A DNA stretch of 64,000 bases, taken from the IMG/VR virus record IMGVR_UViG_3300036886_000243, positions 1 through 64,000 of that record; one strand, 5' to 3'. Of this stretch, positions 2 through 20,091 are shown one piece after another. The notes under the pieces were generated by a model that made no database searches, was not told the DNA's origin, and was given only the letters and a program-made list of their open reading frames with translations. How positions within the stretch are numbered: position 1 is the stretch's first letter; every line of letters starts with the position of its first letter. The DNA comes from a virus. The position numbers and the translations under genes are program-made.

Positions 2-3000
2 GATGCATCCTTTGATTTGTATGGAAGCTATGGTTTCAAAGTTGGTTATTTCTCTAGCGCAGATTTATGTTATGGCACTAAAACCTTCACTTCACAAACT
101 GAAGTCTTTATGAGGGCTTATCTATATATTAGTCCTAATTATAAAGTAGCTGCTGCTGGAAACAGTATCAAAGTTTTAAGCTTCTTATCAACTGGTGGTG
201 GCCAGGAATTAGTTTCTTTATATTTGACTGCTAATGGTGCTACTAACATCATTAATAATTGGACCACATTTATAGATACAGTCGGCACACAAAACTTTGC
301 TACTAATTTCACAACAGGTAATTTTCACAAAATAGAATTACACTTTAGAGCTGGCACTGGTGCTGATGGTGGTGGCCAAATATGGGTAGACGATACGCTC
401 TTGGCTAGTAACTTAACTTTAAACTTAAGCGCATTAGCTTGTAACACTCTATTAGTTGGACCTAGTACTGCTGGTATAAATTCTATACAAGGTTCTTTCT
501 TGTACTTTGATGACATAAAAGTTGATAACTTCCCAGCAATTACTCCAGCAAGAATTCCCGACTATCATGATCTATATACCAAAGTATTTATCAACTCACC
601 AGAGACTAGAGGATATCAAGATTTCGGTTTAAATAAAGCTGATCCTAATATACAATTAACTATAACTGGTACATATGGTTTTTATATAACAGTAAATGGT
701 TATAGCTCTCCTGTCCTTGTCACCATTAACATAGTCGCTACCGATACTCTTAATACAATTGCATCAAAAATTAACCAGCAATTTGCTACACTAGCTTATA
801 ACGGAAGACCGTTTATATTTGCCTACGCTAGAGTTTTCTTAAGCCCTATAACAACTGGTTGGGACTTAAGGATATATAGTCAATCTAGTGGAGATTATTC
901 TACTATACTATTATGCGTATACGGCATTTGAAACTTAAACTTAGTTTTAGGTGGAACTGGATATTTAACAGCAGTTCCAGGCGTTAGCGATTGGAATATA
1001 ATAAATGATATCACATTAACTGATCATCAATTTATAGTAGCAAACGGTGTTACAACTCAGCCGCCTCCAGGATTAGATGTTGGTACGGTAGCCTATGAAT
1101 TGTATTATGCTATGTTAGCAGCTGGCACTAATTTCCCAGCAACAGCCCCACAAAACAACTTCACTATAGGGTTAAATAACTCTATAGGTTTTGATCACAG
1201 CAATCAACTCTATGTATACTCTAATTTAGCGACACAAGGCTTTCAAGCGTTGAATATGAGCGTACCTGATCCTGCTCTAAATTCTCTGCTAGCGCCATTA
1301 ACTACATATTATTTCAAATTAGTTGTAGACGGTGGACCTCTTACTGAGTATGCTATAATAACGACTACTGATACATCTTATCAGGGCGTAGTGAATTCAA
1401 TAAATAATGTACTGACTGGAATAGTCACTGTAAGCTTTAGTATAACAAACGACATCATATTCACATCTGATTCCTATGGACCTTTCTCGAGCGTATCTAC
1501 AGCTGACGGCACTACAGGTACTAGTTTATTTGGTTTTGCTTATCCTGCTGCTGGTTTTACACCTTCAGCCCTACATCTACCACCAGTCTTTGGAACTGGT
1601 ACTATAATTTCAATTAGGCCGTGTCCAATAAAAACGTTTGCAATAATAAAAGATTCAATTAAAGAAAGAGCCACATATAGTTATAATGATACTATAGTTT
1701 ATGTTACGCCCACAGCGCAATCTAGTAAAAGAGATTTTATAGATACCTATACAGCATTTTTAACTAGTACTAGTGCAAATAGATGGTCAACACAAAATAG
1801 TAGAACTATCGCCTTAGATTTAAGCGCTCATCCGAATTGGTTTGCTGGGTCGACAATAACTAAGTTATGTCCGCTTACTATTGGTCTTAATAACTACCTG
1901 TTAGTTGGTAACTCTAAAGGTCAAGTATTTTACTTTTTAGCTAATGTTACTTTGTATAACGAAGATATGATCATATCTTCTTCGACACCACCAGACCCTG
2001 CAACTTTTGTATACTTCACTAGCGCAAATTTAAGACAAGCTGGATTACCAACGCAAGGTGACCCTGAATTTATAAGCAACTTCTTTACTTATGTAGATTC
2101 TGTAAATAATAAGACTTATTTATTTATTTTAACTCAGAGCTACATATATTGGTCAGATATAACTGCTGGTCTAACGCCCAGTCAGTCTTTTAACATAGTA
2201 AATACTAGTAGTTCGTTAATAGTACCGAACGTAACTGACGTCGTATTCAAGGAAATAAGATCAGCAATAAGTTGGACTGCTACTGTTAATCCAACTACCC
2301 CATCAACAAATAATTATGTAATTTTTGTTGGTAAGTCTAACATAAGCACATGGAATCGCGCCCCTATTGTCTATGGACTGTATAATTATAATGGAGCGCA
2401 TCCTGAACAATCATTTATTTGGAATTCAGAAAGTGTATATGAGAAATCACAAATAGACGATATAAGATCTATATCTAAATTTAACAACTGGCAAGATCCA
2501 CAACAAACATATCAATTATTTATAACTAACAACGTTAACGGTCCAGAACTCTGGACTGGTAATTCTCAAAACGGTACGTTTGAGGTTGGTGGTGTAGGTG
2601 GCGACAACAGATTTGTAAGGTTTAGTTGGATAAATGCTAATCATGAAAATGGTACTGATCCTTTTGGAATAAATACTAGTTTGAGCTATTTAAGCTTTGC
2701 GACTGTTTATGATAACAAGTTATTCGTCGGCGGATTACGCTATGACATTAACACTATTGGTGGATTATATAGTTACGGGCTCAACCAGCTTCAAAATTAT
2801 TTTACAGTTGATTCAACTTTATCATCAGCCTTTGTTGATACCTCTGTAAGTAATTCTGCTTTATATGTTGTATTACATGATGGAACTACGGGCAACGCCG
2901 ATCCAGCTATTGCTAAAATAAATCAAGAGACCGATGCTGGTAGAGCTGTAATAGTAAGCGCTATAGATCTTGAAACAGTTTCTGAGTGGCCATCGCAATC

Positions 3001-6000
3001 TGCTTTTCAAGTAGTATTGCTTGGATTCACAGTCGGTGGTATAGTTTATGACGGCACTTACAATGTAGTATTTAATGGAAATTTCTCTGACATAAATGCG
3101 ATTGTGACGGCAATGAATGGTGGTGATGTAGCAGCTGCAGGATTTAAAACAGCTATAAATACAGCTACTAGTACTGTAAGAGATTTGACGCCAGCAATAG
3201 AAGCTGTATTATTGACTGATATAGTATTGTCTGGTTCTGTCTATATAAACAAATTTAAAATTGCAATTCAAAGTAAGACTTCTGATCCAGCCGATCACAG
3301 CGGGTTCACTAGTCCAACACAACCAACTCAATCTAATTGTACTATAACCATTAATAACCCAACCACTGGAACTACTATAGTTGGCGTAGGCCCCAACACT
3401 CTAGAAATATTGGCTGGCACTACAGCACACGCTAATTTACAATTAATAGATTGGAATAACGCGAAACTTAGACAAGTAAAAAGAGTCTCGACTGATTCAT
3501 TCGAATTAAATTTTGGAACGCTAAGCTATATTAACATTACTCCATATATACCCGGCGGATATTCTATACTAACTGGTAGCTTTAGATTGAAGGCAGATCC
3601 AAACGACGAGATTGGTTATTCACAAGGCGACGGCCTAATTCTAACTAGCGGCACTACGCTAACATCGTTATCCCCAATATATAATGGAATTTACACCTTC
3701 AAAGTTGAGTTTGATGCAACAAACATTGCGGGAACTGCCCAGGTTACTAGAATTGTATGCGCAGCTGACTCTAACGGATCTTTGAGTGGAACCTACTTCT
3801 TAATTAACACGCCAACTAAATATTATTATGTTTGGTACAATGTTACTGGTTTAGCCAGCCCATCTATAGACCCACAAATATTTGGATGTTCACCAATAAT
3901 GGTAACAATCCCAAGAGGTACCAGTGCAGCAACTGTAGGTACTACGACTGCTTCTGCCCTAACTACAACCTCAGACTTTATAGCCTCTTCAACTTTAGGC
4001 ATAATCACAGCAACAAACACATCTAATGGTCGCCTAGTACCAGCATCTGATGGAGATACTGGTTTTGGGATTACTACTACAAACATGGGATCTGGTGGAA
4101 ATGTTATCAACCAAATTGTAGTAAATTCGGCCAGTGTCACAACAATAAGTAGTTTAATAATTTCTATAAATTCACAAATATCTGGTGGTGTAGCAACTTT
4201 AAGCCCTATTGGTAATACAACTGACTATTGCGACATAGTAATAACTTCTCTCACTATTGGTAATAATTCTAGTGTAAGAATTTTCGCAGATACTTTGGGC
4301 AACTATCTATTTACTAAATATGGATTGGATATAATACCTAATCAGCCAGTTCAAGGAAGTACGGGTCTTAATACGGCTGGTTATCAGACACTAGGATTTA
4401 CTTGGACTAATTCTGACTATTTCTTAGAATATAGTTATCCCAACAGCCCAGGTACTGGCCAAGTAAGAATCTATATTCCGAATGGTTCTACTAGATTGAA
4501 CACTGGTTCTACTATTTATTTAGATTTTTGGGCTTGGACTACACTAACTAAGATTGCGGCCAAAGTCGGTAACCCGCCACAGAATACTATTCCAGTAGCT
4601 GGTCAGTGGACTTATAAGCTAGAATCTAAAGAAATTGTTTTGGCAGTAGCCCCAAGTACAGTAGCACCACAAGACATGATTTTTGTAGATCTAGAAGTTT
4701 ACAAAGTTTTAGCAGAATTAGATTTAGGTAATACGCCGCCAGTTGATCAGACTGCTATATCTGATACTTTCTATGGTACTCAACCATTCAATCTGACTAA
4801 CGGGGATGTAGCCTTAAACAGACCATTAGCAAGAGTAGAAGCTTTAGATTATGGTATTTTCTTGTTGAGTACTAATACTTCCAACTTAGACAACACTGGT
4901 TCTAATTCACCTATAGTAATAAACTATTCTTTCTTCTTGCCTAGAATAGATCTATTAATGGCTCAAAAAATGCCGGATCAATATGGTAATAGAGTTATAG
5001 AAGTGAAGGGATTATCAGATTCAATAATGCCATGGGCCGAAGTACCACAAACAACTTTAGACTCTACTTCGATGTTATACGGAGCCTTTGTTAGCTCTCA
5101 AGATTATAATAACAATAACATAATAAGTCTGCCATGGTATAGTAACGCTGATGTAGATAAAGACAAAGTTTATTTCACTGGTGAATCTGTACATTATTTT
5201 AGCTCCGATCAAAACTTTATATCAGCTAGTGGTCTTAAGTATATATCTAGAAATATAAACTTAGATAAATTCATTCTTAATAATGATTACGAATTAGTAG
5301 TAGTCACAGATCCAGTCGGAATCAATAGTTTCCGAAATAGAGACGCCAAATATAATAATCTAGATCAGTCTAAATGTATATTCGTTAATAATGATACTGG
5401 TAGTGATGCTTCTGATGGTCAAACTAAAAATTCGCCCGTTAAAACATTACAGAACGCAATAAATCTAGCCACCAACACTAGACCTTACGTCATAATAACA
5501 AGACCAGAGAATTTAAACCAAACTGTTTATACTTCAATTACTATTAATAAGGGTTTTGAGATTTTCATAATAGCTGAATATATTGCTGCTATCCCCCAAA
5601 TAACAATCAGCAGTCCTTGTTATTTACAGGGATTAAACGTTGGAGGCACGGCGGCGCCAGGCTTGGGTATATTAATATTGAATGGCCATGATTTAACAGC
5701 TAAATATTGCAATATTCAAACAATAACTACAGTAGGATATCCATCTGGATCTGCAACGTACAGTAGTATTAATGTAGCTGTTTACAATTCTATTATAGAA
5801 GTAAATGGTGTTGTAGTACTAAATAATCCTATAATTCCATTGAATATAACTGGAGCTACTAATGTATTATTTCAGAATGTATTTATTAGAAGCAGCGCAC
5901 AGATACTTAACTTCAGTCCGGCGACTTATAGTATAACAGCGACTAATACTTTTACATTTAACAACATAACTAACGGTCAAGGTCATGCTGGTACTACTAT

Positions 6001-9000
6001 AACAACTGCTGGTGGAGTATCTCAGAGCATTAATATAACAATTAATAATTCTATATTACCAGCTAACGACGCAGCTGGAATCACAAACTTTGCAACTAAC
6101 GCTGTGGTGACTATTAATAGATCGTTAACTTATAGATTGGTCAATGTTGATTCGGGATCTATTGTAACTGATAAATCTCAAATTGTAAGCGTGGGCGATA
6201 TTGGAATAAATCCTATTACCGGTTCATCAAACTCAATAGCGAGAGGTTTCGCAACTGATTCTTTCGCCATAAACTATATTGATAGACACATAGACGCAGG
6301 AGCTTTCTTAGAAAACAGAATAGAATTAGGAATAGCTAATCAGGCAGCTCCTTCTCTAACCGAATCGTTTATGCACCTACATGAACAAAGATTACAATAC
6401 AGATATAGTATGTTGGGAGATAAGTTTAGCTTCTGGATCCGATTTCAATTGATGACAGACTATACCGTTCCATTTGTATTATTCGATACACGTTATGATG
6501 GCGACTTTAATGTTGATTCAGGATTGTGGAATTTAAACGGTAATGAATTTATACAGATTGTGTATGACAACAACACCTATGCTTTACCATATCTTGATGA
6601 TTCTAAATATTGTTTCAAGGTCGTATTTAGTAATAACTTTGCAACTTACGTAGCAGTCATTGGCCCATATTTTACAGCCTCAGACAATCAGGAATTTGGC
6701 GGACCGAGTGGTCCCAATGGATTCTGGCACGAACTAGGTGTCGTCTATTCTTTAAAGGATATCTATGACAATAAGTATGATTCAATTACAGGCACAGGCG
6801 TTTCTAGCTTAACTCCTCAAACAGTAGGTAGTCCTATTTCTAAGAGTGTAGTAGTTGATAGTAATAGAAAACAAGGTGTCGTTATTACTTTATGGGATAG
6901 TAAAGTAGACAAGATCTACGCACCTTCGTTACCGTTATTTGAAGATCTGAATGGTAATCCAGTTGCTAACAGTAACTGGTACCCCGGCGTATCTATAAGT
7001 AATTTCTTTAATATCGGTGGTGGTTGGTCAGCGGAGTGGGATGGAAGTATATGGTCCACGTGGATACCTTCTAACGGACATCTTTCAATTGATAGATTCT
7101 TAGTTAGTCACGAGGTAATTCCAGCCAATGTATTAGTCAGCATCGGACCAAGAGAAGTTATAATCTTAGATGAAAACGATTGGCGAACGGGTAGATGGGA
7201 TGACAAAGATACAGACATAATAATACATTGTCAAAATCCAAATCCATTCTCAGAAAACGGACTTTATCCAGAACCAGGATATCAAGTTTCATTCCGCCCA
7301 TATGAAGGGTTTGAAGGCAACGCAATAGCTATAGAAGAAGCAAGTCCAAACCTTATACAATATGGTCGCTTCCAGATGGGTCAATGGTTTGATAGAACTG
7401 CTGCAAGTCAATGGGCTACAGGACCTGTAACTGTTTATGAAGAAGTTCAAGCAACTAGTCCTGGTGTAGCTATAGCAGACCTTAGAGGTGGAAATTTAGT
7501 AGTCGATTTCTTGAACACTTCTACATTAGTTATAGCACATTCAACTACAGTATTAATTGGACCTACTTTACCCTTCTCGCCTCCAACAGTTTCAATGGAT
7601 ATTACCGGAAATAGTATAGTAGTGGGCTACATTTATTCTGATAGTTTCTTCTATTTTAATACAGTCAACACTAATACTTATTTATTGGGAACAACAGCGC
7701 CGGGATATCAACTTGCTAATACAGCTGGTGCTACCTATATATCAGTTACAGCTGGTGCTACTAGTTCACAAGCAATATTTACTTACGAACATACTGGTTT
7801 AGGTTACATAGTAATAATAGATGTAACTACTAATACTGTAATCGCTGGCCCAACTGCTTTTAGTATCGCTCCAATAACTTACAGTAACGCTAACACTTCT
7901 GTAGACAAAGATGGTAACCCAACTTACGTTATAGTTTATGTAGATGCAGCCACTAAGTTCTTGAACTATGTAATGTATAACTCAACCCTAACAGCCACTG
8001 TTTACCCAATAGCCACTTTAGTTCAAACAGAAAATCCAACTCATCTAGAATGCAATAGCTTTGGGGCTTTTGGAAATACAGCTATAAAGTGGATTAATAA
8101 TACCGACATGGTGGTTGGTGGAAATTGTGAAAGTATTACAGCTCCATTCTTGTTTGGACAAGTTCCAGCAGCAACTGTAAATGCAACGTGGGCCCAAAAC
8201 GCTTTAGTACCGCATACCGGTGGTTTTTCATTCGAGCTTACATTAACTCCCGCAGCAGCTGACGCCCAAGCTTTTTTGGGACCATCCTCTTCGGTAGACA
8301 TGAGCGGTTTTATTGCAGGGCACACATATAAATTTGCAGCATGGATTTACATTCCAGCCCAAGCTGTAGTAAATATTGCAAACTTCAGTCTCACATTTGG
8401 TTACTACAATGGATCTTGGACGTATGTTCCAGCTACACCCACGGCAATATTCAATGCATGGCAATATATTACTGCCTCAATTACGATACCTGGTGGTGCT
8501 ACGGGTGCTCAAGTCTTTGTTCAAATAACTTCGGCTGAAGCTATTGGTACGCATTGTTATTTTGATGATATTCAAATAATAGATGCAGCAAATCCGACTA
8601 CTCTAAAAACTGCATTGATTAACGACACTGGATTATTAGCAGTTTCACCATTTCCAGTATATGCTAACGCAGACACTGGATTACAAGCGGATGATGTATT
8701 GCTAACATCAAATAACAACATGTTATTTGCTGTAAAAGATTTTACTACACAACACATAAACTTTGCTATATACAATAGTGCACTAGACTTAGTACCCAAT
8801 TCGTCTAATATAAGACCTTACAATATGAGCGACGTTGACGGAAAAATATTATTATCTAATGTGTATAACTCTAACGACTATGTAATTATTACAGACAACA
8901 TTGCTGGTAACGCTAATATCATAACATTAGCTACAGATGTACCTACATTATGGTATAAAGATTTTACAGGAGTATTTCAGACTTTCATTGCGGATGTCGA

Positions 9001-12000
9001 ATCAACTAATAGCTTATTTGGTGAAGCGGCCTTTATCGATTTTGCCCACGAGCCAATGGCTGTAGAATCAGATGTATTTGTAGCTGACGCTGAAACAGGT
9101 AACATATCGCAATGGACGACGAACGTACAATCTGGTGGTAGTATAACTGCTGAAAATGCTATAATAATTCATGGTAATTATAGCTACCAATTTCAATACA
9201 ATGGATCAGGCAATGCAGTATATCTAAGTAAGAATGCTGGCCTTAACCCTGGTGGCAATCCAACGTTGTTTGGTAGATTCTACATTCAGTTGGATAGTTT
9301 TTTCACTTTAACGGGCGTCAACCCACAACTTGTTATAGCTCAATATGGGCCATCAGGTAATCCACTAGTTCTAAGTATAGTCTATAATTCAGTTGACAGA
9401 AAATATAAGTTATCAGGTTCTGCTGGCGCTTTCGGTAGTTTCCTTACTGCCAATAGTGTCATCGATTATAGTACTTCACACTATATTGATATAGAGTGGG
9501 TAAATAATGTTTCAATTGGCGGTTGGTCGGTTTGGGTAGATGGTACATTAGTTGCTAGCGATTTAGCTCAAGACACATCTTCGCTTGGCAATCCTTCAAT
9601 TTTCATAATAGGAAACACAGTTGCTCAAGCTACACCACCAGCTACATTAGCTAAGATCTATTTTGACGACGCCAGATCAGGCTACACTGGACCAATAGGC
9701 GCTTATACAGCAGGATTGGGACAAGGTCAGATATGGCAGCCAGTAACTGTAGTTAACTCAGGACAATATTTCATATCTGGATTTTTTGCAGTTACCTCAG
9801 GCAATTTTATACTTACATTAGAAAGTACTAGCACAGGCGCTGGTGGGGCACTAAGTAGCCCAATTCAATATGAGTTTAGTAATTTAAAAATCGAGGGAGA
9901 TATAGCTAACGCTATACACCTGACTAAAGGAACAGACACGGTAAATAATTTTACTTTGAACCAAGTAAATACTAATAGAATTGCTAGATTTACAATTGGA
10001 TTCACTGTCCCGAATGCCGGCTATATAAACGTTAGACTACAAACTCCCTATATCTCTGGCTCAGAAATAGACACTCTATTTGTGGACAATCTTAAATTAG
10101 AAAATAACGCTCATGCTACGAGTATAATAACTTCGGGCACAGGTAATGCTGTTTATGATATTCACTTGAAAGAGAAGGGTAATGCCTACTTTAGAATAAC
10201 CCCAGAGTTTTTCACTACTACAGCAACTAACCATACTATATTTTCTGGATACACCACTAACAGTTTGAATGTCGTATATACAACGCATGAATTATATTTT
10301 AGCGGAGCAACTAAACAATTTATTTTCTATATTCAAAATCTTGACTTGACAACAGTTCAAGTAGCGTCAGCAATATACGGAGATGCTATATCAATACCAG
10401 CCTTCACAGACTTAAATTCTCCGCATACAATTGTAGTGAACTGGGATTTATTCCACGGCTATTTGGAAATGTATATTGACACTATTTATTATTCTACTAC
10501 ATTCCCAGTTCAATCTAGAATAGCAACATTTAAGGAAGCTGATTTTACAGTTATTGGTAATGTATTTGATCTAAGCCGACATGCTGGTTGTCTATTTGAT
10601 TTAATACGAGTTGGTGAAACTCCACTATCTACAGACGAAGTTCTGGATCTGACTTTAAAGGCGAATCCTTTCGTTCATCCATCTGATACATACATAGGCT
10701 CAGTAGGAGTAACTGGTCTATCTTTCTTTGGATTAACCAGCGGTGATTTATATGATCAAACTATATATTCAAGACAAGTTGGTAACGGTTGGGATCTAGT
10801 TATTGATACTGGTAACAATTTTCTTAACAACTTAGTAGTTCAAGTTAACGGATCTCCGTTAGCAACTTTCACAGCCCAGGGCGTCGTAATAAATGGTAGC
10901 CTAGAGGTTACAAACTTAATAGCACAAACTACGACGACACTATCAACTACTGGAGATAACATAACTCTAAGATTTGGATTTACAGGAATCCCACAACCAT
11001 CTAACAATGGTTATTTCCAAGTAGATAGAGGTAATTTAGCTGACTCTCAAATTATTTGGCTAGAGGCTATAAAGGCTTGGGCGTTTAACGATGGAACTAA
11101 TACCAATATCGCTATTGATGGAACCTCTATAGGAACTTGGAACGCTGCCGCTCCTAATTGGAGCATAGATGTAAACGCAAGTGGCAATTTAACGTTCTTG
11201 AGTGGAACTACCACTAACTCTAACACCACGGCCAGAACTGGTGGCGTAGAAATGTTAAGAGTGAACTCAGCTGAAGTTGCATTTAACAACTCTAATCTCC
11301 AAACTATAAACTTTAGAATGTCTGGCGGTTCCAGAGATCATATGTTCTTCCTAAATACCAATTTAGGAAACTTAACTGTGGGTAGAAGCGCTGGATTGAT
11401 TCCAACTTTTACACCAAGTTACACACCTATAATGGCTGTAGATACTTTATTATCTGTGGTAAACGTCAACTCCAATAACTATGGATCTATAATGTTTGCT
11501 GAAAATGCAGGAACAGTTGGTGGTCATATAGGTTGGGGTAATTTTACAAGCTCGCCAACTTATTGGGAAATTGTAACTAGAACTGGTCAACTTAGAGTTT
11601 GGGGTAGTGACCTTGTAATGGGTAACACCGACGGATCTCGAGGAATAACATCTACAGGCTTAGGCCTAAGCTTTTTCGAGGATCCTATAAATGCTAGATT
11701 GGCATTTACTTCAAACGCACAAACACAAACTACCGGAGTTTCTTTAGCTGGCGTATATTGCTGGGGTAGTTTTACAGCCTACAAGGTATTTAACAATGTT
11801 TGGAACGATTACGCAGAAGCTTTCGATTTTGATAAACAAATAGAAAAAGATCCTGAACCAGGATTTGTTTACGAGCAAACGGAAAAAGGTCTGATCAAGT
11901 CTACTAAGCGAGCTAGTAAAGCTGCAATAGGTATTTACTCAGACACTTATGGACAACTTATGGGATCAGAAGGAAAACTATACGATGCTGAACATTTAGA

Positions 12001-12211
12001 CGGATCCAAGATCCCAATAGGCTTGATGGGAAAAGTTAAAGTATGGATCAAAGAAAAACTTGAAATCGGCGACTCGCTAGTTTCTGCACCTAATGGTTTT
12101 GCCACTAAAGCTAATGAATATGAAAGAACTTTCAGTGACTTAATACTTGGTAAAGTTCTCGAGACCTCTAATGATAATTCTGAAAAAAGAGTTTGGGTCT
12201 TAGTGAAATAA
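2..12211 (+). CDS. Giant tail fibre/tailspike-like virion protein (5' end upstream of the window; one in-frame TGA at 929-931), with LamG/ConA-like, beta-helix and CBM-like domains and a C-terminal Peptidase_G2-like intramolecular chaperone
   Basis: ORFs 17..931 and 1100..12211 are in the same frame, which is open from nt 2 and between 932 and 1099. T/S/G/N-rich. Beta-helix cap motif IFVNNDTGSDASDGQTKNSPVKTLQNAI (~5380-5465). C-terminal WNDYAE...IPIGLMGKVKV...IGDSLVS...ILGKVLE. Confidence 0.8.
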
Positions 12212-12250
12212 ACACATAATTTAATTCTATACCAAAATTAGGAAGCTTCT

Positions 12251-15064
12251 ATGACAAACTTTACGCAACTTTTAAAAAAAGTAATGCTATTGAGTGATCT
12301 CAATCAAGCTCAAACTGCTATAAATAACGAGAGAGCTAGGCGTACCGCTATAAATGGCAGTACTATACCGGCATGGTCGTTTTTACCAGTTAGTCGATAT
12401 GATTACGCTTCTGGTAATTTAATTACCAACGGCAATGGCGAAACAGTTTCACCTGCTCCTGCTATTTTTGGGAAGACTGGTGCAGCAGTAAATTCAACTT
12501 TTACTCAAAGCTCAACACACGTTCACTTAGGCTCTAACGCCTTCAACTTAGCTTACACGTCTGGTCTTACTCAATTTTATTGGGACTTTGCATCGCCTGA
12601 AAGTTTCACCAACTTGGGAGGCTTAGTACCAAATACTACTTATACACTTACTGCTTGGGTTTATGTGCCTTCGTCAATAATTTCATTATCAAACGTTACG
12701 CTTGCCATTTATTATAGCACAGATGGTGTTAGTTGGACAAACTTTGCCCAATCTAATTCACCAACTGCTTACAATGATTATCAGCGCTTAACTTTAATTT
12801 TTACTTTGCCACCAAGCACTACTGGAACTATTTTAAAACTACTCGTTAATGAAGTCGGGGCCACTAAACAACTTTGGGTTGATGATATATATCTTCGATC
12901 TAATACTCCAGCTGTAGTAGCTGATTTAAGAAATTCTATAAACAACATGATAAACTATAGCTGGACACAATCGGCTGTTGAATATGGTTATGAAACAGCC
13001 CTAGGTCAAAGCGAAATACTTTGGAAAATTAACAGACTAGAAGAGAACGCTGAAACTTGTAATTCTTCTTGTATTGGATTCTGTCAAGGTTGTTCAACAC
13101 AATGTGGAACTGCATGTGCTACTGGTTGTGGTGCGGCTTGTGCTACTGGTTGCGGTGGTAGTTGTGCAATTGGCTGTGGAACTGCTTGTGCAAGCGGTTG
13201 CGGGGCAGCATGTCAAATTACTTGTGGTGGAACTTGTAATGAAAGCTGTAGCAGCTGTACTGGTAGTTGTGCTACTGGTTGTTCAGGTACTTGTTTCCAT
13301 GGCGCTACAGGTGCTGGTTTATATACTTCGTGTAATTGTGGTACTAGCTGTAGTAGTACTTGTGGCTCTTCCTGTTCTGGATGTTATACGACATGTACGT
13401 CGAGTTGCGGAAGTGCTTGCGTAGGTGGTTGTGGTACCTCTTGTCAAAGTGGTTGTGGTACTGGATGCGCTGGAGGTTGTGGAACTGCATGTACTAATGG
13501 TTGTGGAACTGCATGTCAGAGCGGCTGTGGAACTTCTTGTCAAGCTGGCTGCGGAACCTGCGCATTACAATGTTATAATGCATGTACAGGAACTTGTGGT
13601 GGATTATGCGTTGTTACTTGTGGATCTAACTGCACAGCTATCGCATCATATGCAACTAGTTTAAGCCGATTTATTACATCGCCTTATTATTCTATTCTTC
13701 CAGGTACTATAGTAGAATCACTCTATGATGATCAACAAGTTGTGGGAACTACCGATGTTACTGCTTCGGTAGTTTTTGGATCTTACGTTGTAGTGGGATC
13801 TTCTAGTGGACGTATTGCTTCGTTTGATACGGTCCATAATTATTGGAAGTGGTATACTGGTTATTCAAACGGAACTTCAAATGGGCCGTTTAATGTTGGA
13901 ACAGCTGTAAACAATCAAGCCGTAATAAAGTTACTAGTCTTAGGCACTAAACTTATAGTAGTAACACAGAATTATGTTGCTTCTTATGACGGCACTAATT
14001 GGAAAAATTATGACGGGACTGGCACCGGAACTGGACCATTCGATAATAACACAGCAACGGGCGGATATGGTAACTCAGATGCTGTCGTATGGACTACTAA
14101 ATTAATCATCATTGGACTTACTACAACATTTAATGGTACAAATTTCCTTGCACATAATAGATTATCTTCTTTTGACGGCACGAATTGGAAATATTATAAT
14201 GGAACTGGGACTGGAACTGGACCATTTGCAATAGATGTAAAATCAGATAACACAATTGGAAATCTTTGGGGAGTTTCAGGTTGGTCTTTTAGTTACAACG
14301 TCAAATTAACAACCTACAACACTTATCTTATTGTGTTTGGCGGATCGTTAATTACAGAAGGTCCAGGTACACCATTTACCCACTCTAACGCTGGCTGTGC
14401 TTCATATGATGGGAACTGGAAATATTTTGATGGAACTGGAACTGGAACTGGGCCATTCTTTAATAGCGCTCTAGCCAACGGCGGCCCATTGCCACACGTT
14501 AATGGCACGCTCACGACTATAGCCACAATTGGTGCTTGCGGAAGTTATAACGGGCAACTGATAGTGACTGATTTTGCTTATGGTAATACTAGAATAGCTT
14601 CCTGGGATGGTAGCCATTGGAAAAATGCTGATGGTACAGGGACAGGGACTGGTGTCTTCTATACTGGTACAGCTATTTTAGGAGCTAGCGCTCATATATT
14701 AAAATTATTAGATTACGCACCCGGCGCAACGCATTTCTTAGTAATAACCTCTGATATAGCTAGTGCTTTAGCTTCTTGGAATGGAGCTAGCTGGAGAAAC
14801 TCTGATGGTACAGGTACTGGCACAGGACCATCAAACTCTGGCACTGCAGTAAATTCTCAAATAATTCAAACACTATCTACACTAATATACAGTGGTAAAA
14901 ATTATTTGGTACTTGGAGCTAGTGGTGGAAATATTGCATCTTATGACGGGACTACATGGCTAAATTACAATACTGTGCCTACAATAATTACAACTGGAAC
15001 CTATTTTACAAATAATCCACCAGCTGAGTATTTTGGAGTGACTGGTTATTATACGTCAATTTAA
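12251..15064 (+). CDS. Fibre-like protein with CBM-like domain, Cys-rich CXXX-repeat tract and 7-repeat (probable beta-propeller) C-terminus; putative radical SAM modification target
   Basis: CBM-like NLITNGNGE...YTLTAWVYVP...LWVDDIYL; 48 Cys in 192 aa (13058-13633); seven AS(Y/F/W)DG..WK..DGTGTGTGPF-type repeats. Confidence 0.85.
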   Translation: MTNFTQLLKKVMLLSDLNQAQTAINNERARRTAINGSTIPAWSFLPVSRYDYASGNLITNGNGETVSPAPAIFGKTGAAVNSTFTQSSTHVHLGSNAFNLAYTSGLTQFYWDFASPESFTNLGGLVPNTTYTLTAWVYVPSSIISLSNVTLAIYYSTDGVSWTNFAQSNSPTAYNDYQRLTLIFTLPPSTTGTILKLLVNEVGATKQLWVDDIYLRSNTPAVVADLRNSINNMINYSWTQSAVEYGYETALGQSEILWKINRLEENAETCNSSCIGFCQGCSTQCGTACATGCGAACATGCGGSCAIGCGTACASGCGAACQITCGGTCNESCSSCTGSCATGCSGTCFHGATGAGLYTSCNCGTSCSSTCGSSCSGCYTTCTSSCGSACVGGCGTSCQSGCGTGCAGGCGTACTNGCGTACQSGCGTSCQAGCGTCALQCYNACTGTCGGLCVVTCGSNCTAIASYATSLSRFITSPYYSILPGTIVESLYDDQQVVGTTDVTASVVFGSYVVVGSSSGRIASFDTVHNYWKWYTGYSNGTSNGPFNVGTAVNNQAVIKLLVLGTKLIVVTQNYVASYDGTNWKNYDGTGTGTGPFDNNTATGGYGNSDAVVWTTKLIIIGLTTTFNGTNFLAHNRLSSFDGTNWKYYNGTGTGTGPFAIDVKSDNTIGNLWGVSGWSFSYNVKLTTYNTYLIVFGGSLITEGPGTPFTHSNAGCASYDGNWKYFDGTGTGTGPFFNSALANGGPLPHVNGTLTTIATIGACGSYNGQLIVTDFAYGNTRIASWDGSHWKNADGTGTGTGVFYTGTAILGASAHILKLLDYAPGATHFLVITSDIASALASWNGASWRNSDGTGTGTGPSNSGTAVNSQIIQTLSTLIYSGKNYLVLGASGGNIASYDGTTWLNYNTVPTIITTGTYFTNNPPAEYFGVTGYYTSI
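13058..13633 (+). repeat. CxxxC (Cys every 4th residue) coding repeat, two blocks joined by FHGATGAGLYTS
   Basis: CGTACATGCGAACATGCGGSC...; 12/24-nt periodic tgtggaactgcatgt-like DNA units. Confidence 0.95.
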
Positions 15065-15076
15065 GGAGAATTTAAA

Positions 15077-16168
15077 ATGCCTGTTTTCATAAATCAAAAT
15101 TATACCGGGATAACATTCGCAGATTATCCAGTTTCAAATGTTGGGGTTTCAGCTTTTAATCTACAACACGACTGGTTTACTCAACAAGATTTATCAATCT
15201 ATACTGGAGCGGGTCATACTGGAACACAGCTTCTATTAGGAGTACACTATATTTTGGTAACACAAGCCACTGACTTGTCTGCTAACTGTACAGCTGTTCG
15301 AGGTATAACTATTAACGCTTACTATCAGATTCAAATAATAAATGTTACTTATCAAACAGGCAATCTATTTATTAGCGGTCGATATGTAGCTGACTCGCTT
15401 GACGCCTCAAAAGTTGAAGTATCGCCTACTATAGCAATATCAGGTAACTACACAATAATTCAAGACAAAATAAGATCTGTCCACGCTACTACTGGTGGTG
15501 GTACTGTAACTTTGACTTTACCTACAGGAACTATCAATGATTATCGAAGAGTGCGTTATGTCAAAGCAGACGCTGGCATTGGCACTGCCGTATTGGCTGT
15601 TGATATTAGTGATACAATAGGTCCTAGTGGAACAAGTTTCACATTATATTCTCAGGGTGATTATATTGATGTAGAGTATGAAGCACTAACTCATATTTGG
15701 TGGCCAATTGGTAATCGTGTATTACCAACAGCAGACATTTATTTGGGCAAACCGATTTATTTTACAACAGCCAACACAAGTAGATCGTTAGTTTCGACAA
15801 CACCTCCAATCGTAGCAAACTTTTCCACAGCAATACAAGCCACTGGTTTGGTTGGTATTCCTGCTAGCGCTAAAGCTATTATAGTAACTATTGATATAGA
15901 AGGGACAGTAGATAACACACCTTGTGAATTGTTGTTAGGCTTCTCAGATAACAATACAACTACCCCTTCTATTTCAACTAGCCATGCAAAGGCTCGTCTA
16001 TATGCTTCTGTAGGTGGGACTTTTAGTGGAACATGGAAAAATGATCCTGTCCAAGTTATCATACCATTAAATTCACTTGGGCAATTCTATACTTATACAA
16101 TAACTTTGAGTAACATCACAGGATCTACATATAACGTAATTGCTAACGGATATTACACCGGTCTTTAA
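15077..16168 (+). CDS. Putative tail fibre/virion protein
   Basis: T/G/I-rich, TVTLTLPT...VKADAG..AV fibre-type segment, SD aaggag, lies in the tail module. Confidence 0.6.
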   Translation: MPVFINQNYTGITFADYPVSNVGVSAFNLQHDWFTQQDLSIYTGAGHTGTQLLLGVHYILVTQATDLSANCTAVRGITINAYYQIQIINVTYQTGNLFISGRYVADSLDASKVEVSPTIAISGNYTIIQDKIRSVHATTGGGTVTLTLPTGTINDYRRVRYVKADAGIGTAVLAVDISDTIGPSGTSFTLYSQGDYIDVEYEALTHIWWPIGNRVLPTADIYLGKPIYFTTANTSRSLVSTTPPIVANFSTAIQATGLVGIPASAKAIIVTIDIEGTVDNTPCELLLGFSDNNTTTPSISTSHAKARLYASVGGTFSGTWKNDPVQVIIPLNSLGQFYTYTITLSNITGSTYNVIANGYYTGL

Positions 16169-16182
16169 AGAAAGGTCATTAA

Positions 16183-17409
16183 GTGATAAGTGAAAAGCTA
16201 GATTCTCAAATAGCCAAAGGCGCTCCGCAATACAAAGCGGGAGAAGCCAAAGATATAACTTTCTGTGTCACACAAGCTTGTAACTTAAGATGTCGCTACT
16301 GCTATATTGTAGGAGCTGATAATCATAAGAGTCTTACTAAAGATCAAGCCAAGAAAAACATAGATTTTATTTTTGATAATCCCGAACTCTTTTATGAGAA
16401 CTCTGTTATTTGGAATTTTATAGGCGGAGAGCCTCTCTTAGAAATTGAGCTGATTGACTACATGTGCGACTATTTAAAAATAAGAATGTATGAAAAACGA
16501 TCAGATGATTGGTTAAGCGATCACATGTTTTGTTTTTCAACTAATGGAACATTGTATCATAAGCCGGAAGTTCGAAAATTCATAAATAAGAACAAGGATC
16601 ATCTCTCAATTGGTTTTTCAATAGACGGCGTAAAAGAACTTCATGATAAATACAGAGTTTATCAAGATGGTAGAGGTAGCTTTGAAGATGTTTTAAAAAA
16701 TGTACCTTTATATGTAGCTGATTTTCAACATCACCCAACTACTAAAGCTACTTTATCACATGACTCTTTACCTTATATTTTTGAGTCAATCAAATTTCTT
16801 TCGACTTTAGGTTTAGACATTTACATGAATACCGTCTTTGAAGATATTTGGCAAGATGGTGATGATGATATATACTATGACCAGCTTTTACAAGCAGCTG
16901 ATTGGCTTATTGAAACAGGAAAGTGGCGTACACAGGTTGTGAGTTTGTTTGACTCAGCATTAATTGGACCACGCAATAATAATAACAAAAATTGGTGTGG
17001 TTCTGGTAAGATGTTGCACATAGACATAAACGGTAAACTTTTTCCATGTACTCGACTCGCTCCATATTCTATGACTTATAGAAAAGAAGGATTTTCTTTT
17101 GGAGATATAGAGCGGGGATATGACCAAAATAAACTAGATGCTTTTCTCAATTTGACTAAGCCTGATCAGAGCGATATGAGTTGTTTAAGTTGCGACATAG
17201 ATGATGGATGTGCTTGGTGTACAGGCTGGAACTATGATAGATACGGCTCAATATTCAAAAGAGCCACCTTCATATGTAAAATGCATAAGGCCAGAATGAA
17301 AGCCAATAGATACTACTTTAATAGACTAGAAAGCTTGATAAAAAGTGAAAGTTTTGAAAACAGTCTAAAAGAGAATGCTCCCATCTGGGAAGCCTTAGCA
17401 AAGGAATAA
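16183..17409 (+). CDS. Radical SAM/SPASM peptide maturase, CXXX-repeat target family (TIGR04115-like)
   Basis: CNLRCRYC SAM motif, FIGGEPLLE, STNG, SIDG; SPASM NWCGSG..LFPCTRL..CLSCDIDDGCAWCTGWNYD..RATFICKMHKAR. Confidence 0.93.
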   Translation: MISEKLDSQIAKGAPQYKAGEAKDITFCVTQACNLRCRYCYIVGADNHKSLTKDQAKKNIDFIFDNPELFYENSVIWNFIGGEPLLEIELIDYMCDYLKIRMYEKRSDDWLSDHMFCFSTNGTLYHKPEVRKFINKNKDHLSIGFSIDGVKELHDKYRVYQDGRGSFEDVLKNVPLYVADFQHHPTTKATLSHDSLPYIFESIKFLSTLGLDIYMNTVFEDIWQDGDDDIYYDQLLQAADWLIETGKWRTQVVSLFDSALIGPRNNNNKNWCGSGKMLHIDINGKLFPCTRLAPYSMTYRKEGFSFGDIERGYDQNKLDAFLNLTKPDQSDMSCLSCDIDDGCAWCTGWNYDRYGSIFKRATFICKMHKARMKANRYYFNRLESLIKSESFENSLKENAPIWEALAKE

Positions 17410-17410
17410 T

Positions 17411-18115
17411 ATGGTTCTTTATTATCTAAGTGGTAAAATTCATAGCGACTGTCATTATGAAGACTTAGAGCTTGATGATATTGACATAGCCTTAGCCACA
17501 AAATTAGCCGACGAGAAACAAATATATTTGCAAGAATTTAGTGCATCGGAGTTTTCAGAGGACGGTTTAGATTTTCCAATTAATGAAAGTACTTGCAATA
17601 AAAGAATTTTAGCACCTGACATGAACATCTATTATTGTCCTGGATTTGTAGAATTGAAAGAACCTATTTGCTCTCTGAGAGAGTTTAATGAAGAAGATTT
17701 CGATAAAAAGCTTGAGGACTTCTATTTCAAAAAACTTTATATGTGTACAAGTCCCAACGTAGAAGACGTGAGAAGATTTTGTCCGGTGAAAACTAAATGT
17801 GATAAAAAAATGTGCTATTATCTAAATCACAAACTGACTGGTGATAATAGATTTCCTTTTAGCGATTTCTGCATAGTTAAGGAAAACAGGTACACTAAAA
17901 AAATGGACACGAATAATATAGATATTTTACCAATACTCTTAAATTGTTTAATAAAACAAAATGAGGCTATTCACTCTTTGGGAACTGCTCATCCAAATCC
18001 AGTAGTCAAAAATAGACTGCTCAATTTAGTTGAAGAAGTCAATGAAAATATCTCGACTGTTATTGACAGAATGGAACAAGCTGTAAAGCAAGATGGAGAA
18101 GAGGATGTCCCTTGA
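17411..18115 (+). CDS. CXXX-repeat peptide maturase partner (TIGR04119-like), shortened SPASM-type protein
   Basis: N-terminal SDCHYE; CNKRILAPDMNIYYCPGF; KCDKKMCYYLNHKLTGDNRFPFSDFC; starts 1 nt after the radical SAM stop. Confidence 0.72.
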   Translation: MVLYYLSGKIHSDCHYEDLELDDIDIALATKLADEKQIYLQEFSASEFSEDGLDFPINESTCNKRILAPDMNIYYCPGFVELKEPICSLREFNEEDFDKKLEDFYFKKLYMCTSPNVEDVRRFCPVKTKCDKKMCYYLNHKLTGDNRFPFSDFCIVKENRYTKKMDTNNIDILPILLNCLIKQNEAIHSLGTAHPNPVVKNRLLNLVEEVNENISTVIDRMEQAVKQDGEEDVP

Positions 18116-18293
18116 AAAAGGAATATATCACGGCAAAGAGAAACGCAAGCCCTATTACGACTCGCGCAGATTTGATTGGTCTTGTAAGCAGCATGGTGGA
18201 TGTGCCTGGTGCTATAGCAATCGTAAAGGGAAAGATTTAACTCGACTTCGAGAATGGACTCGAGCACAAATAGAAGAAATAGAAAGGAGCTAA
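18105..18293 (+). CDS. Small basic phage protein with CxxHGGCxWC motif
   Basis: MSLEKGIYHGKEKRKPY..SCKQHGGCAWCYSNR; ATG 18105 preceded by purine-rich ggagaagagg. Confidence 0.6.
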   Translation: MSLEKGIYHGKEKRKPYYDSRRFDWSCKQHGGCAWCYSNRKGKDLTRLREWTRAQIEEIERS

Positions 18294-18294
18294 G

Positions 18295-18576
18295 ATGCGA
18301 AAAATAGTTGGTCATGTCACTCAAGCGGAGAAAGAAGAAATTCAAAATATCTTCAATCGAAAACGAGGTCTAGAAGAGTTATTCAATTCTCTCGTATCAA
18401 CTAAGGCTGACGTCAAAAATAATCCAACTTATGATAGGCTGCTAAAAGATTATACTGACACTACTACTCAGTTTCACGATTGGTGGAGCATGACATCTCA
18501 GAGATATCTTTGGGAAGGCATAGACAGTAAATCTTGGTTGATTGATTTTAATACTAACGAAATTTACTTAGAGTAG
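18295..18576 (+). CDS. CXXX-repeat peptide modification system accessory protein (TIGR04116-like)
   Basis: MRKIVGHVTQAEKEEIQNIFNRKRGLEEL...YDRLLKD...FHDWWSMTSQRYLWE...WLIDFNTNEIYL matches my recollection of the family; SD aaggag. Confidence 0.85.
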   Translation: MRKIVGHVTQAEKEEIQNIFNRKRGLEELFNSLVSTKADVKNNPTYDRLLKDYTDTTTQFHDWWSMTSQRYLWEGIDSKSWLIDFNTNEIYLE

Positions 18577-18589
18577 AGATACTCTCCTT

Positions 18590-18618
18590 AGCCGGTACTC
18601 TTTTGGTACCGGCTTTTT
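18590..18618 (+). terminator. Intrinsic terminator closing the tail/CXXX operon
   Basis: agccggtac-tcttttg-gtaccggct followed by tttt. Confidence 0.85.
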
Positions 18619-18622
18619 GTAG

Positions 18623-18630
18623 CAAGATAA
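18623..18630 (+). promoter_or_regulatory. CAAGATAA putative phage (late-type) promoter
   Basis: Recurrent intergenic motif; ATG 4 nt downstream, no SD. Confidence 0.65.
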
Positions 18631-18634
18631 TTTC

Positions 18635-18910
18635 ATGAGATGGGAAGCGGGACAAAAATATTACTACATCATCCACTACAAAGAAGGCGAGATTGGTGCT
18701 GTTGTAGTAGTTCCCAAAAAAGACTCTAACGACTTTTATCCCATACTTAAGATTGAAAAAATACTAACACCCGATGTATATTTAGGACACTCTGATAGAA
18801 TTATCGAAGGCCACGAGATTAGTGCTAATGAACTACAAGGCGGGGCTGCCGAAAATCATTATTTTGATCAATATGAGTTTATAGAAAGAATTTTTATCGG
18901 AGATCCTTAG
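18635..18910 (+). CDS. Hypothetical protein (C-terminal FIERIF motif group)
   Basis: ORF directly after the CAAGATAA motif. Confidence 0.55.
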   Translation: MRWEAGQKYYYIIHYKEGEIGAVVVVPKKDSNDFYPILKIEKILTPDVYLGHSDRIIEGHEISANELQGGAAENHYFDQYEFIERIFIGDP

Positions 18911-20091
18911 TCGGGTAGTTTGTGGAAGTGGGCAATCACTTCGGAACAAGATTCGCCGCTCAGTTTAAGTGAAGGCTCCTGTTCAAGCGATTCTTCAAAG
19001 TTTATCAGAGCTTCATCACTCAAAAAATCCCACGGCTCAATCAACCCTTTTATTTCTTCTTCAGAAAGAGTAGGCATAAAAATAGTAGATTCAAAACGCT
19101 TGGCCCGAACTACTTCTTGTTCTTCTTCTAACTCATCAGCAATAGACTTACGAAGAATTCCTATCAACCAGCTATTAGCCCAATTAAAATCAGGCTTCTT
19201 GGGTAGTTTTGTAGTCTTGTAGGCCTCATCAGCTGCTTTCTCGTATTTGTCATATAAGGCCATCAACTCATTCAAGTCTAGTTTAGCCTCTCGAACAGCA
19301 AGAATATCTTCTCTGGCTTGACCAGAGATAGGATAGCGTAATTCACCAGTAGCGAGAAGATCTACAGCCTCAGCGAGAATACGAATCAGGTGATAGCCGA
19401 ATTTCACATCATAGCCAAGGGTCTCAAAAGTCTTTGTGTGTACTCTCCAGCCATATGTGTCATATTCGGTCTTGAGGTGTTCATAAATCATTTTGATACT
19501 CATGCCAAGGTGAAAAGACTCGCAGTTCGCTCGCATGTTCTTGTAATACTTCAACATGCTGTTAAGCTGGTTGGCGTCAGTTTCGTTTATAGCAATATCG
19601 TCTCTATCTCTTTCTTCAGGACTGAAGGAGTCGACTATCCAGTCTAGGCCTTTAGCCAGGCTGGTGAATCTCTCACTCTTTACGGTGAGTTTCTTCTTTT
19701 GAGAATAAGCGTAGCCTTTGAATGTGTGATAGATTTTTTGAGAGATGATTTTGTCTCTGTTCGCCACAAGACTTTGCCATTCTGGTGAGGTCATCAAGAT
19801 GTTTTCTGGCGTAGCGAAGAAAAACTCTACAATGTTAGGGTTGTTTTCCAAAGCTAAGTGAAGATATTTGGGTAGGGCGTAAACCTTATCGTCTATATCT
19901 TCTGAGGTGTTTCTTGTTCCTGCTGCGGAACTCTTAGTCGAGTTATCTACTTCTTCTACATGCTTGAGACCAAGAATATACTCGCTCTTGGGAATAAACA
20001 CACCACCAAAGTCCTCATCCGACTCTGGATGATTCAGACCATAGAGATGGGACCCCGTGCGCAGTTTGAAAATCAATCGTCCTTGTTCCAT
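18907..20091 (-). CDS. RlaP/YcgL-like (Pol-beta superfamily) nucleotidyltransferase
   Basis: TGSHLYGLNHPESDEDFGGVFIP, NNPNIVEFFF, FKGYAYSQ, YDVKFGYHLIRIL, LPKKPD. Confidence 0.85.
   Translation of the reverse strand: MEQGRLIFKLRTGSHLYGLNHPESDEDFGGVFIPKSEYILGLKHVEEVDNSTKSSAAGTRNTSEDIDDKVYALPKYLHLALENNPNIVEFFFATPENILMTSPEWQSLVANRDKIISQKIYHTFKGYAYSQKKKLTVKSERFTSLAKGLDWIVDSFSPEERDRDDIAINETDANQLNSMLKYYKNMRANCESFHLGMSIKMIYEHLKTEYDTYGWRVHTKTFETLGYDVKFGYHLIRILAEAVDLLATGELRYPISGQAREDILAVREAKLDLNELMALYDKYEKAADEAYKTTKLPKKPDFNWANSWLIGILRKSIADELEEEQEVVRAKRFESTIFMPTLSEEEIKGLIEPWDFLSDEALINFEESLEQEPSLKLSGESCSEVIAHFHKLPD

Follow-up and report, generated by a model that had tools for sequence, protein, structure and literature searches.

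A candidate radical SAM cassette for cross-linking a cysteine-repeat protein in a T4-like phage from peat

Does a phage modify one of its own large proteins with an enzyme set that is defined, by database models, in bacteria? The question is raised by positions 12251-18614 of a 64,000-nucleotide stretch of viral DNA (positions 1 to 64,000 of the IMG/VR record IMGVR_UViG_3300036886_000243; 'the window' in what follows means this whole stretch). One tightly packed row of genes, all on the + strand, encodes there a protein of 937 amino acids (aa) with 48 closely spaced cysteines (P0001), a 363-aa protein (P0002), a radical S-adenosylmethionine (SAM)/SPASM maturase (P0003) and two further proteins that we treat as its candidate partners (P0004 and P0005). 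The original prediction for this locus was a phage-encoded CXXX-repeat modification system whose substrate is a virion fibre protein.

Our conclusion is that this phage probably uses enzymes to cross-link a large surface protein of its own. The best overall explanation, to which we lean by a modest degree, is that the cassette cross-links the cysteine tract of P0001 by thioethers and that P0001 is a host-binding surface protein of the virion. A fuller version is more tentative and could well fail in one of its parts: a tailed phage would staple a 48-Cys rod within its own host-binding virion protein by radical SAM chemistry, this would exemplify a widespread and so far undescribed kind of enzymatic cross-linking of virus structural proteins, and the cassette would come from a bacterial CXXX system whose targets are exported by twin-arginine translocation (Tat), joined here to a fused protein made of a carbohydrate-binding domain, the tract and a propeller. 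Some of this is already known: the CXXX-repeat radical SAM system exists as a set of database families, and installation of thioethers at the level of whole proteins is demonstrated. Undescribed so far are the viral setting and a multidomain, presumably virion-borne, substrate; we found no paper on the phage cassettes or on such a system in any virus.

The cysteine tract and the enzyme set

P0001, the presumed substrate (12251-15064, +; open reading frame (ORF) call, domain searches and structure model), consists in order of an N-terminal helix, a jelly roll resembling a carbohydrate-binding module (CBM), a second helix, a CXXX tract of 192 residues and a seven-bladed beta-propeller. The tract is delimited by Cys count and spacing: 48 of the 50 cysteines of the protein lie within residues 270-461 (13058-13633, +), in two blocks of 21 and 27 that are separated by a 13-residue spacer. 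The CxxxC spacing that had been noticed for this protein is confirmed, since 41 of the 47 gaps between cysteines are exactly 4 (four more are 3), far above the level in shuffled sequences (mean 11.5 and maximum 21 CxxxC in 5000 shuffles of the tract; maximum 9 in 2000 shuffles of the whole protein). Besides Cys the tract is nearly all Gly, Thr, Ser and Ala, with no Asp and a single Glu, and it opens with C-x3-C-x-G-F-C (residues 270-278). The DNA that encodes it is built from repeats of 12 and 24 nt that have diverged (68-81% matches). The complete gene (2.8 kb) is covered by contigs of three independent peat sequencing runs with no differences and no indels, and because the sequence is identical in all three we do not regard the tract as an assembly artefact.

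P0003 (16183-17409, +; 408 aa, GTG start) has the radical SAM motif CX3CX2C together with the seven cysteines of a SPASM domain, including the motifs on which the prediction of such an enzyme had been based (CNLRCRYC at 33-40, GCAWC and FICKMHKAR). It passes the TIGR04115 model of the bacterial CXXX system over its whole length (430.1 bits, E-value 8.7e-129, model positions 1-359 of 359; cut-off 350), and its cysteines C33, C37, C40, C272, C289, C334, C337, C343, C346 and C365 are invariant in phage and bacterial relatives. The predicted 93-aa accessory protein likewise stands: P0005 (18295-18576, +) matches TIGR04116, 'CXXX repeat peptide modification system protein', at 79.5 bits (E-value 1.6e-22, model positions 2-90 of 90; cut-off 50).

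The same cannot be said of the third family. The proposed search of the three genes with hidden Markov models (HMMs) succeeded for TIGR04115 and TIGR04116, whereas the 234-aa protein P0004 (17411-18115, +) has no match to TIGR04119 even at an E-value of 10 (cut-off 150), nor to a module profile built for the purpose, and has 4 relatives only among 1.84 billion representatives. What survives of its description as a second SPASM-like protein is a profile-profile comparison. Combined with its relatives in one profile, P0004 aligns with fused TIGR04115-TIGR04119 proteins at an hhalign probability of 93% (E-value 2.4e-7) over 77 columns only, with residues 64-157 against columns 589-668, where the TIGR04119 module has its C-terminal, cysteine-carrying end. 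By this comparison P0004 appears to retain only the last 80 or so residues of that module, its N-terminal two thirds being missing; it has six SPASM-like cysteines and no radical SAM core. A canonical locus of the bacterial type, L041, runs in the order target, TIGR04115, TIGR04119, TIGR04116, which places P0004 in the TIGR04119 slot, and from these comparisons we read it as a reduced, divergent remnant of the module, not a member by the family criterion. P0154 and P0155, weak matches of P0004, were considered as a bridge to TIGR04119 and rejected, having no link to that module.

The tract of P0001 is very probably the in-cis substrate of these enzymes, judging from sequence and gene order. 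We base this on five points taken together: it is the sole such tract of the record, it holds the record's sub-threshold matches to the target families, the gene order is, one inserted gene apart, the bacterial one, enzymes and tracts co-occur in other viruses, and the start motif of the tract is shared. A six-frame scan of the 91.5-kb record to which the window belongs found no second CXXX tract, in keeping with the earlier remark that a small free precursor is absent; small Cys-containing ORFs at 24.4-29.8 kb, tried as CXXX targets, have 0-2 CxxxC spacings each and were rejected as such. The suggested comparison of the tract with TIGR04114 came out negative, as did that with TIGR04117 (9.6 and 8.6 bits against cut-offs of 20 and 50; no hmmscan match), and the sole, sub-threshold, matches of the whole record to these two models lie in the P0001 tract. 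The tract gene stands two genes upstream of P0003 in the same row and is the nearest such gene.

The bacterial system (TIGR04115/04119/04116 with the targets TIGR04114/04117) is the closest one by the models whose cut-offs P0003 and P0005 pass, and the likeness extends to the arrangement of genes. In the bacterial loci fetched, the tract gene is on the strand of the TIGR04115 gene and near it, mostly directly upstream; target, maturase, SPASM-only module and small protein follow in the same order as in the phage, bar one gene inserted in the latter; and bacterial targets too have Cys at every fourth residue and are rich in Gly, Ser, Thr and Ala. The systems differ in that this one is encoded by a T4-like phage, has the extra 363-aa gene, and has a TIGR04119 partner and a tract that fail their respective models. 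They differ also in the substrate, which here is an internal tract of a multidomain protein of 937 aa without a signal peptide. The bacterial targets had been assumed to be short peptides; those in the fetched loci are proteins of 75-350 aa, many with leaders that look by eye like Tat or lipoprotein signals.

Recurrence in other phages

The arrangement around P0001 is one case of a recurrent phage theme and not a one-off. A profile search of IMG/VR with the enzyme found 80 viral loci, many of them near-duplicates, of which 75 have a full-length enzyme. For this survey a Cys-tract gene was defined as having at least 10 closely spaced cysteines and lying co-directionally within 3 kb of the enzyme gene. 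Such a gene is present in 66 of the 75 loci, and the farther flanks of the surveyed loci (524 kb) contain only two genes with such a tract. The synteny that had been proposed as a check is thus found, in that enzymes co-occur with Cys tracts and some of these are within tail-fibre proteins. The tract of locus L094 is fused to a domain that matches tail-fibre PHROGs at 1e-31, that of L046 to an esterase and a tail-fibre-like domain, and in L001 and L002 the tract gene has tail-fibre genes on both sides. Among the 25 PHROG families that most frequently flank the cassettes (37 distinct loci), the named ones are nearly all tail fibre, baseplate, tail or virion structural families. The 80 IMG/VR loci together with L001, L002, L042 and L043 yield 57 distinct tract proteins of about 40-820 aa; 24 of these have precisely C-x3-C-x-G-[LFM]-C at the start of the tract, as in P0001.

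The theme includes a cultured phage. In Salmonella phage SPN3US (JN641803; L043) two tract ORFs of the family phrog_6085 lie between the gp168/gp167 genes and two radical SAM genes; gp168 is a tail protein and gp167 a virion protein (PMC5105663). At 5070-5462 of the locus, between gp167 and gp166, we found an unannotated ORF of 130 aa with 21 closely spaced cysteines, which matches phrog_6085 at 8e-41, is a paralogue of gp166 and stands directly upstream of gp166, gp165 and both radical SAM genes. The SPN3US tract proteins score 140 bits against phrog_6085. P0001 reaches 25.5 bits (E-value 2.2e-5, residues 224-336 against profile positions 6-119 of 129), a match that may be driven by composition.

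In SPN3US (gp163/gp164 and gp166; phrog_6085, phrog_1802) and in many of the IMG/VR cassettes these genes are annotated only as 'radical SAM' and 'hypothetical'. They resemble the cassette of the window in having a SPASM enzyme with TIGR04115 as its best match, a co-directional tract gene nearby, large structural neighbours and the tract start C-x3-C-x-G-[LF]-C. They differ in that their tracts are usually C-terminal tails of proteins of 100-400 aa, whereas that of P0001 is internal and followed by a propeller, and in that their enzymes remain below the TIGR04115 cut-off (126-300 bits), form a separate clade and mostly have no TIGR04116 partner; among the other phage loci such a partner was found only in L003, L044, L045 and L052. 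By the topology of a FastTree phylogeny, with the SPN3US enzyme as root, P0003 groups in one clade with its seven closest relatives (P0006-P0012, metagenome proteins that are 61-80% identical to it). This clade branches with the bacterial TIGR04115 family and the viral L045 and L052, apart from the large group of phage enzymes. A metagenome scan for loci of the P0003 type gave, among the matches listed, bacterial-type loci only, at 41-48% identity.

Some tract proteins of the survey have unusual companions. In L002 (IMGVR_UViG_3300042261_000329), a 353-aa protein encoded at 4459-5520 has a tract followed by a sequence like the Hint/intein N terminus (C-F-P-x-G-T...), and this sequence feature hints that some tract proteins process themselves. 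In L102, L105 and L107, proteins of 716-784 aa combine an N-terminal Cys tract (C-x2-C or C-x3-C, Gln and Glu being present) with a region at the C terminus that weakly matches an amidase PHROG, and adjoin distant radical SAM relatives; these may be a further variant of the tract theme. Relatives of the P0001 tract (P0156-P0164) carry the precomputed Pfam family PF27846, so Pfam may recently have defined a family for Cys tracts.

Placement of P0001 and chemistry of the cassette

From its context, and by analogy with the loci just described, we take P0001 to be, most likely, a surface protein by which the virion binds the host (a fibre, whisker or decoration protein). Its recognizable domains are of binding types. 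The CBM_4_9-like domain (residues 56-215; 12416-12895, +) recurs in the neighbouring giant ORF of 3703 aa (1100-12211, +; ORF call), which ends 39 nt before the P0001 gene. The giant ORF matches PF02018 at residues 2399-2476 (29.6 bits), and its residues 2336-2493 align with those of the P0001 domain at 30% identity (BLASTP, E-value 6e-11). The propeller (about residues 496-907; 13736-14971, +), delimited by an AlphaFold2 model and comparison with the PDB, has the repeats SxDGxxW (Asp-box-like) and GTGTGTG. It is modelled at a predicted local distance difference test (pLDDT) score mostly of 60-94, and its top PDB match is a bacterial lectin, PLL (5c9o_A; Z 23.4, root-mean-square deviation 2.9, 285 residues aligned), in a tie with many WD40 propellers. 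For residues 1-495 pLDDT is below 50, and the model is uninformative on the tract and the CBM.

P0001 may have arisen as a fusion of two adjacent genes. Shorter relatives of its tract part, P0156 and P0157 (460 aa), have by eye a jelly-roll-like N-terminal domain and a C-terminal tract. P0157 comes from a contig of 187,060 bases and P0128, a relative of the propeller, from one of 187,052 bases; it is from the near-equal size of these contigs that we consider the two parts as possible neighbours.

The placement on the virion is the weakest step and the one that a competing explanation contests. The tract could be modified by the phage enzymes while P0001 is a released or intracellular protein outside the virion, for example a metal-binding or host-surface-binding factor. 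Neither P0001, P0002 nor the giant ORF matches a tail or virion family; many of the bacterial targets, given leaders that look by eye like Tat or lipoprotein signals, are probably exported and not parts of virions; and metal binding may be the role of the modified CrpA protein discussed below (PMC13692751). We nevertheless find this unlikely. P0001 has, by eye, neither a signal peptide nor a hydrophobic N-terminus, it has its CBM in common with the 3703-aa neighbour, whose size is typical of phage fibres, and elsewhere such tracts are fused to tail-fibre domains and lie within tail and baseplate modules.

For the chemistry we compare the nearest characterised enzymes. Thioether formation by radical SAM/SPASM enzymes is familiar from small antimicrobial peptides and has only recently been shown on whole proteins (QhpC, and CrpA in 2026). 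PapB links Cys to Asp in C-X3-D motifs, and its substrate PapA is a short leader-core peptide with repeated Cys-X3 spacing. PapB/PapA (the freyrasin ranthipeptide system, NF047865) differs from the phage pair also in that P0003 does not reach the cut-off of the PapB model and the tract of P0001 has no Asp. The chemistry therefore cannot be the Cys-Asp link of PapB, and Thr, Ser, Ala, Gly, Gln or Asn would have to serve as acceptors. In Methanococcus voltae, the SPASM radical SAM enzyme CrpC (TIGR04463; Dieter et al. 2026, PMC13692751) makes ranthionine links on the 28.8-kDa Cys-rich protein CrpA, with acceptors that include non-acidic residues (motifs ACAGM and CPLVL). QhpD/QhpC, from quinohemoprotein amine dehydrogenase, is a similar case, a SPASM enzyme acting on a Cys-rich protein, and for both pairs the thioether links are experimentally shown. 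Both are cellular and not viral, and P0003 is distant from both enzymes (64.2 bits against TIGR04463, cut-off 525; 106 bits against QhpD, cut-off 453). CrpC moreover has a domain for recognition of its substrate (RiPP recognition element (RRE), where RiPP stands for a peptide that is made by the ribosome and modified after translation), whereas P0003 has no N-terminal extension able to hold one, and CrpA has few motifs compared with the 48 regular repeats of P0001.

We favour serial formation of thioethers because the best-scoring characterised relatives of P0003 all form Cys thioethers and because CrpC provides a precedent. During infection of an anaerobic host, P0003 would bind SAM and three [4Fe-4S] clusters and take a hydrogen atom from a residue beside each Cys. 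The Cys sulfur would then be joined to that carbon, giving a thioether and a loss of 2 Da each time, serially along the tract. P0004 and P0005 may help as partners in electron transfer or in holding the substrate. This would yield a covalently stapled spacer, resistant to reduction and to proteases, with the CBM on one side and the lectin-like beta-propeller on the other.

A different outcome on the same substrate, such as loading of the 48 cysteines with metal or Fe-S clusters for which the SPASM proteins act as loaders or scaffolds, oxidation of Cys as in formylglycine formation, or C-C links, seems to us distinctly improbable. It draws on the lack of acidic residues, which leaves the tract without acceptors of the PapB and QhpD type, on the low-scoring likeness of P0003 to anaerobic sulfatase maturases (65 bits) and to cyclophane-forming enzymes (56-59 bits), and on the presence in P0004 of SPASM-like cysteines without a radical SAM core. 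On the other side, the top characterised relatives of P0003 are thioether formers without exception (PapB 187, CcpM 132, QhpD 106 and the SCIFF maturase 86 bits), and CrpC gives thioethers on acceptors that are not acidic (PMC13692751). Very unlikely is the further idea that the enzymes have another, real substrate (a small CXXX precursor encoded in the other 55% or so of the genome, or a host protein) and that the P0001 tract is an unmodified spacer stabilised by disulfides or metal: the incompleteness of the record, the position of P0002 between tract gene and enzyme and the sub-cut-off scores with the target models leave room for it, but tract genes keep close to the enzyme in the viral loci and are nearly absent farther out, the bacterial tract gene is mostly directly upstream of the maturase, and a 48-Cys tract with the start motif of the family is unlikely to stand by chance two genes from a maturase.

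Several observations weigh against thioether cross-linking of a virion-borne P0001. Concerning the virion, P0001 matches neither a tail nor a virion family of Pfam or PHROG and has no counterpart in GenBank phages (none by tblastn for its propeller), so that the predicted fibre identity finds no family support in either P0001 or the 363-aa protein. The giant ORF has no tail or virion family match and no tblastn match in GenBank phages, P0002 has no Pfam, NCBIfam or PHROG match and again none in GenBank phages by tblastn, and homologues of the propeller domain of 800-1600 aa exist without a Cys tract. Concerning the substrate, about 55% of the phage genome is outside the record and could contain another target, and P0002 stands between tract gene and enzyme, unlike the bacterial order. 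A leader profile made from 27 phage tract proteins scores 7.8 bits against P0001 residues 1-269, which is at the top of 500 shuffles and not significant, and the AlphaFold2 model has a pLDDT below 30 in the tract and is uninformative there. Concerning the chemistry, the second-best family match of P0003, the PapB model NF047865 (186.8 bits), falls short of its cut-off of 340; the tract lacks the Asp acceptor used by PapB, the nearest characterised relative; and our literature search found no biochemical study of any TIGR04115 member. A complex prediction for P0003, P0005 and P0001 residues 240-310, run with no controls, gave a score of 0.01, which speaks neither for nor against the pairing.

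If phages do apply thioether chemistry to their own adsorption proteins, it would be a new kind of virion maturation, with a purpose analogous to capsid chainmail and made with enzymes of the RiPP type. It would account for the 'radical SAM' genes that many phages, those of the cultured SPN3US group among them, have in their tail modules, and would provide a natural, genetically encoded route to rigid protein rods that resist reduction. The window is useful here in that its enzyme set is the bacterial, database-defined one and the presumed substrate is unmistakably a large multidomain protein, which makes the step from peptide to protein directly testable.

The gene row and its phage

The row had been described as a compact co-directional unit that ends in a terminator, and this description holds. 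The five main genes are all on the + strand with gaps of 12, 14, 1 and 179 nt between them, and a hairpin scan placed an intrinsic-terminator-like hairpin followed by a T run at 18590-18614 (+; 10 pairs, 6 of them G-C), the best-scoring one within 11800-19200. No enrichment was seen for the T4 late-promoter word TATAAATA; its sole copy near the locus falls inside P0001.

One correction concerns the gap before the last gene. The five genes had been placed rightly, and the gap is occupied by an additional ORF of 66 aa (18093-18293, +; ORF call) with the motif C-x2-H-G-G-C-x2-C. At its end the stop overlaps the start of P0005, the TIGR04116 gene (TAAGATG), with GGAG just ahead of that start, and it has no family match. 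It may belong to the cassette as an additional small protein that binds zinc, or have nothing to do with it.

P0002 (15077-16168, +) is the ORF between presumed substrate and enzyme. It had been called a 'tail-type gene', a label that no family match supports; language-model searches gave weak leads to phage tail-fibre clusters (score 0.83). We take it to be a real gene because 23 of its 28 listed population differences among peat runs are at third codon positions. The same is true of 12 of 12 listed differences in P0003, and with this bias both genes are under purifying selection in that population. All strain differences that are listed for peat populations within 15147-17256 of the window are in P0002 or P0003, the majority of them at the third position of a codon.

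The 91.5-kb IMG/VR record whose first 64 kb form the window is judged to be about 45% complete and belongs to a T4-like phage from peat. The phage is assigned from the rest of the record, which encodes a T4-type (gp20) portal (267 bits) and a gp23-type major capsid protein (212 bits). The stretch is found in at least 10 peat metagenome runs from several studies, and P0001 is also present on a contig of 178 kb; an origin from peat fits an anaerobic host. A blastn search with the region found no match in GenBank phages, and no RNA run is among the sequencing runs listed as containing the stretch.

Two further genes of the record are worth noting. In the T4-type portal gene (G000 84229-86607, equal to L125 6229-8607), an intein splicing domain (PF14890, 41.5 bits) precedes the Portal_T4 match. 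At 55205-56731 (+) the window encodes a phage Hsp70/DnaK (PF00012, 605 bits), whose match begins at profile position 127.

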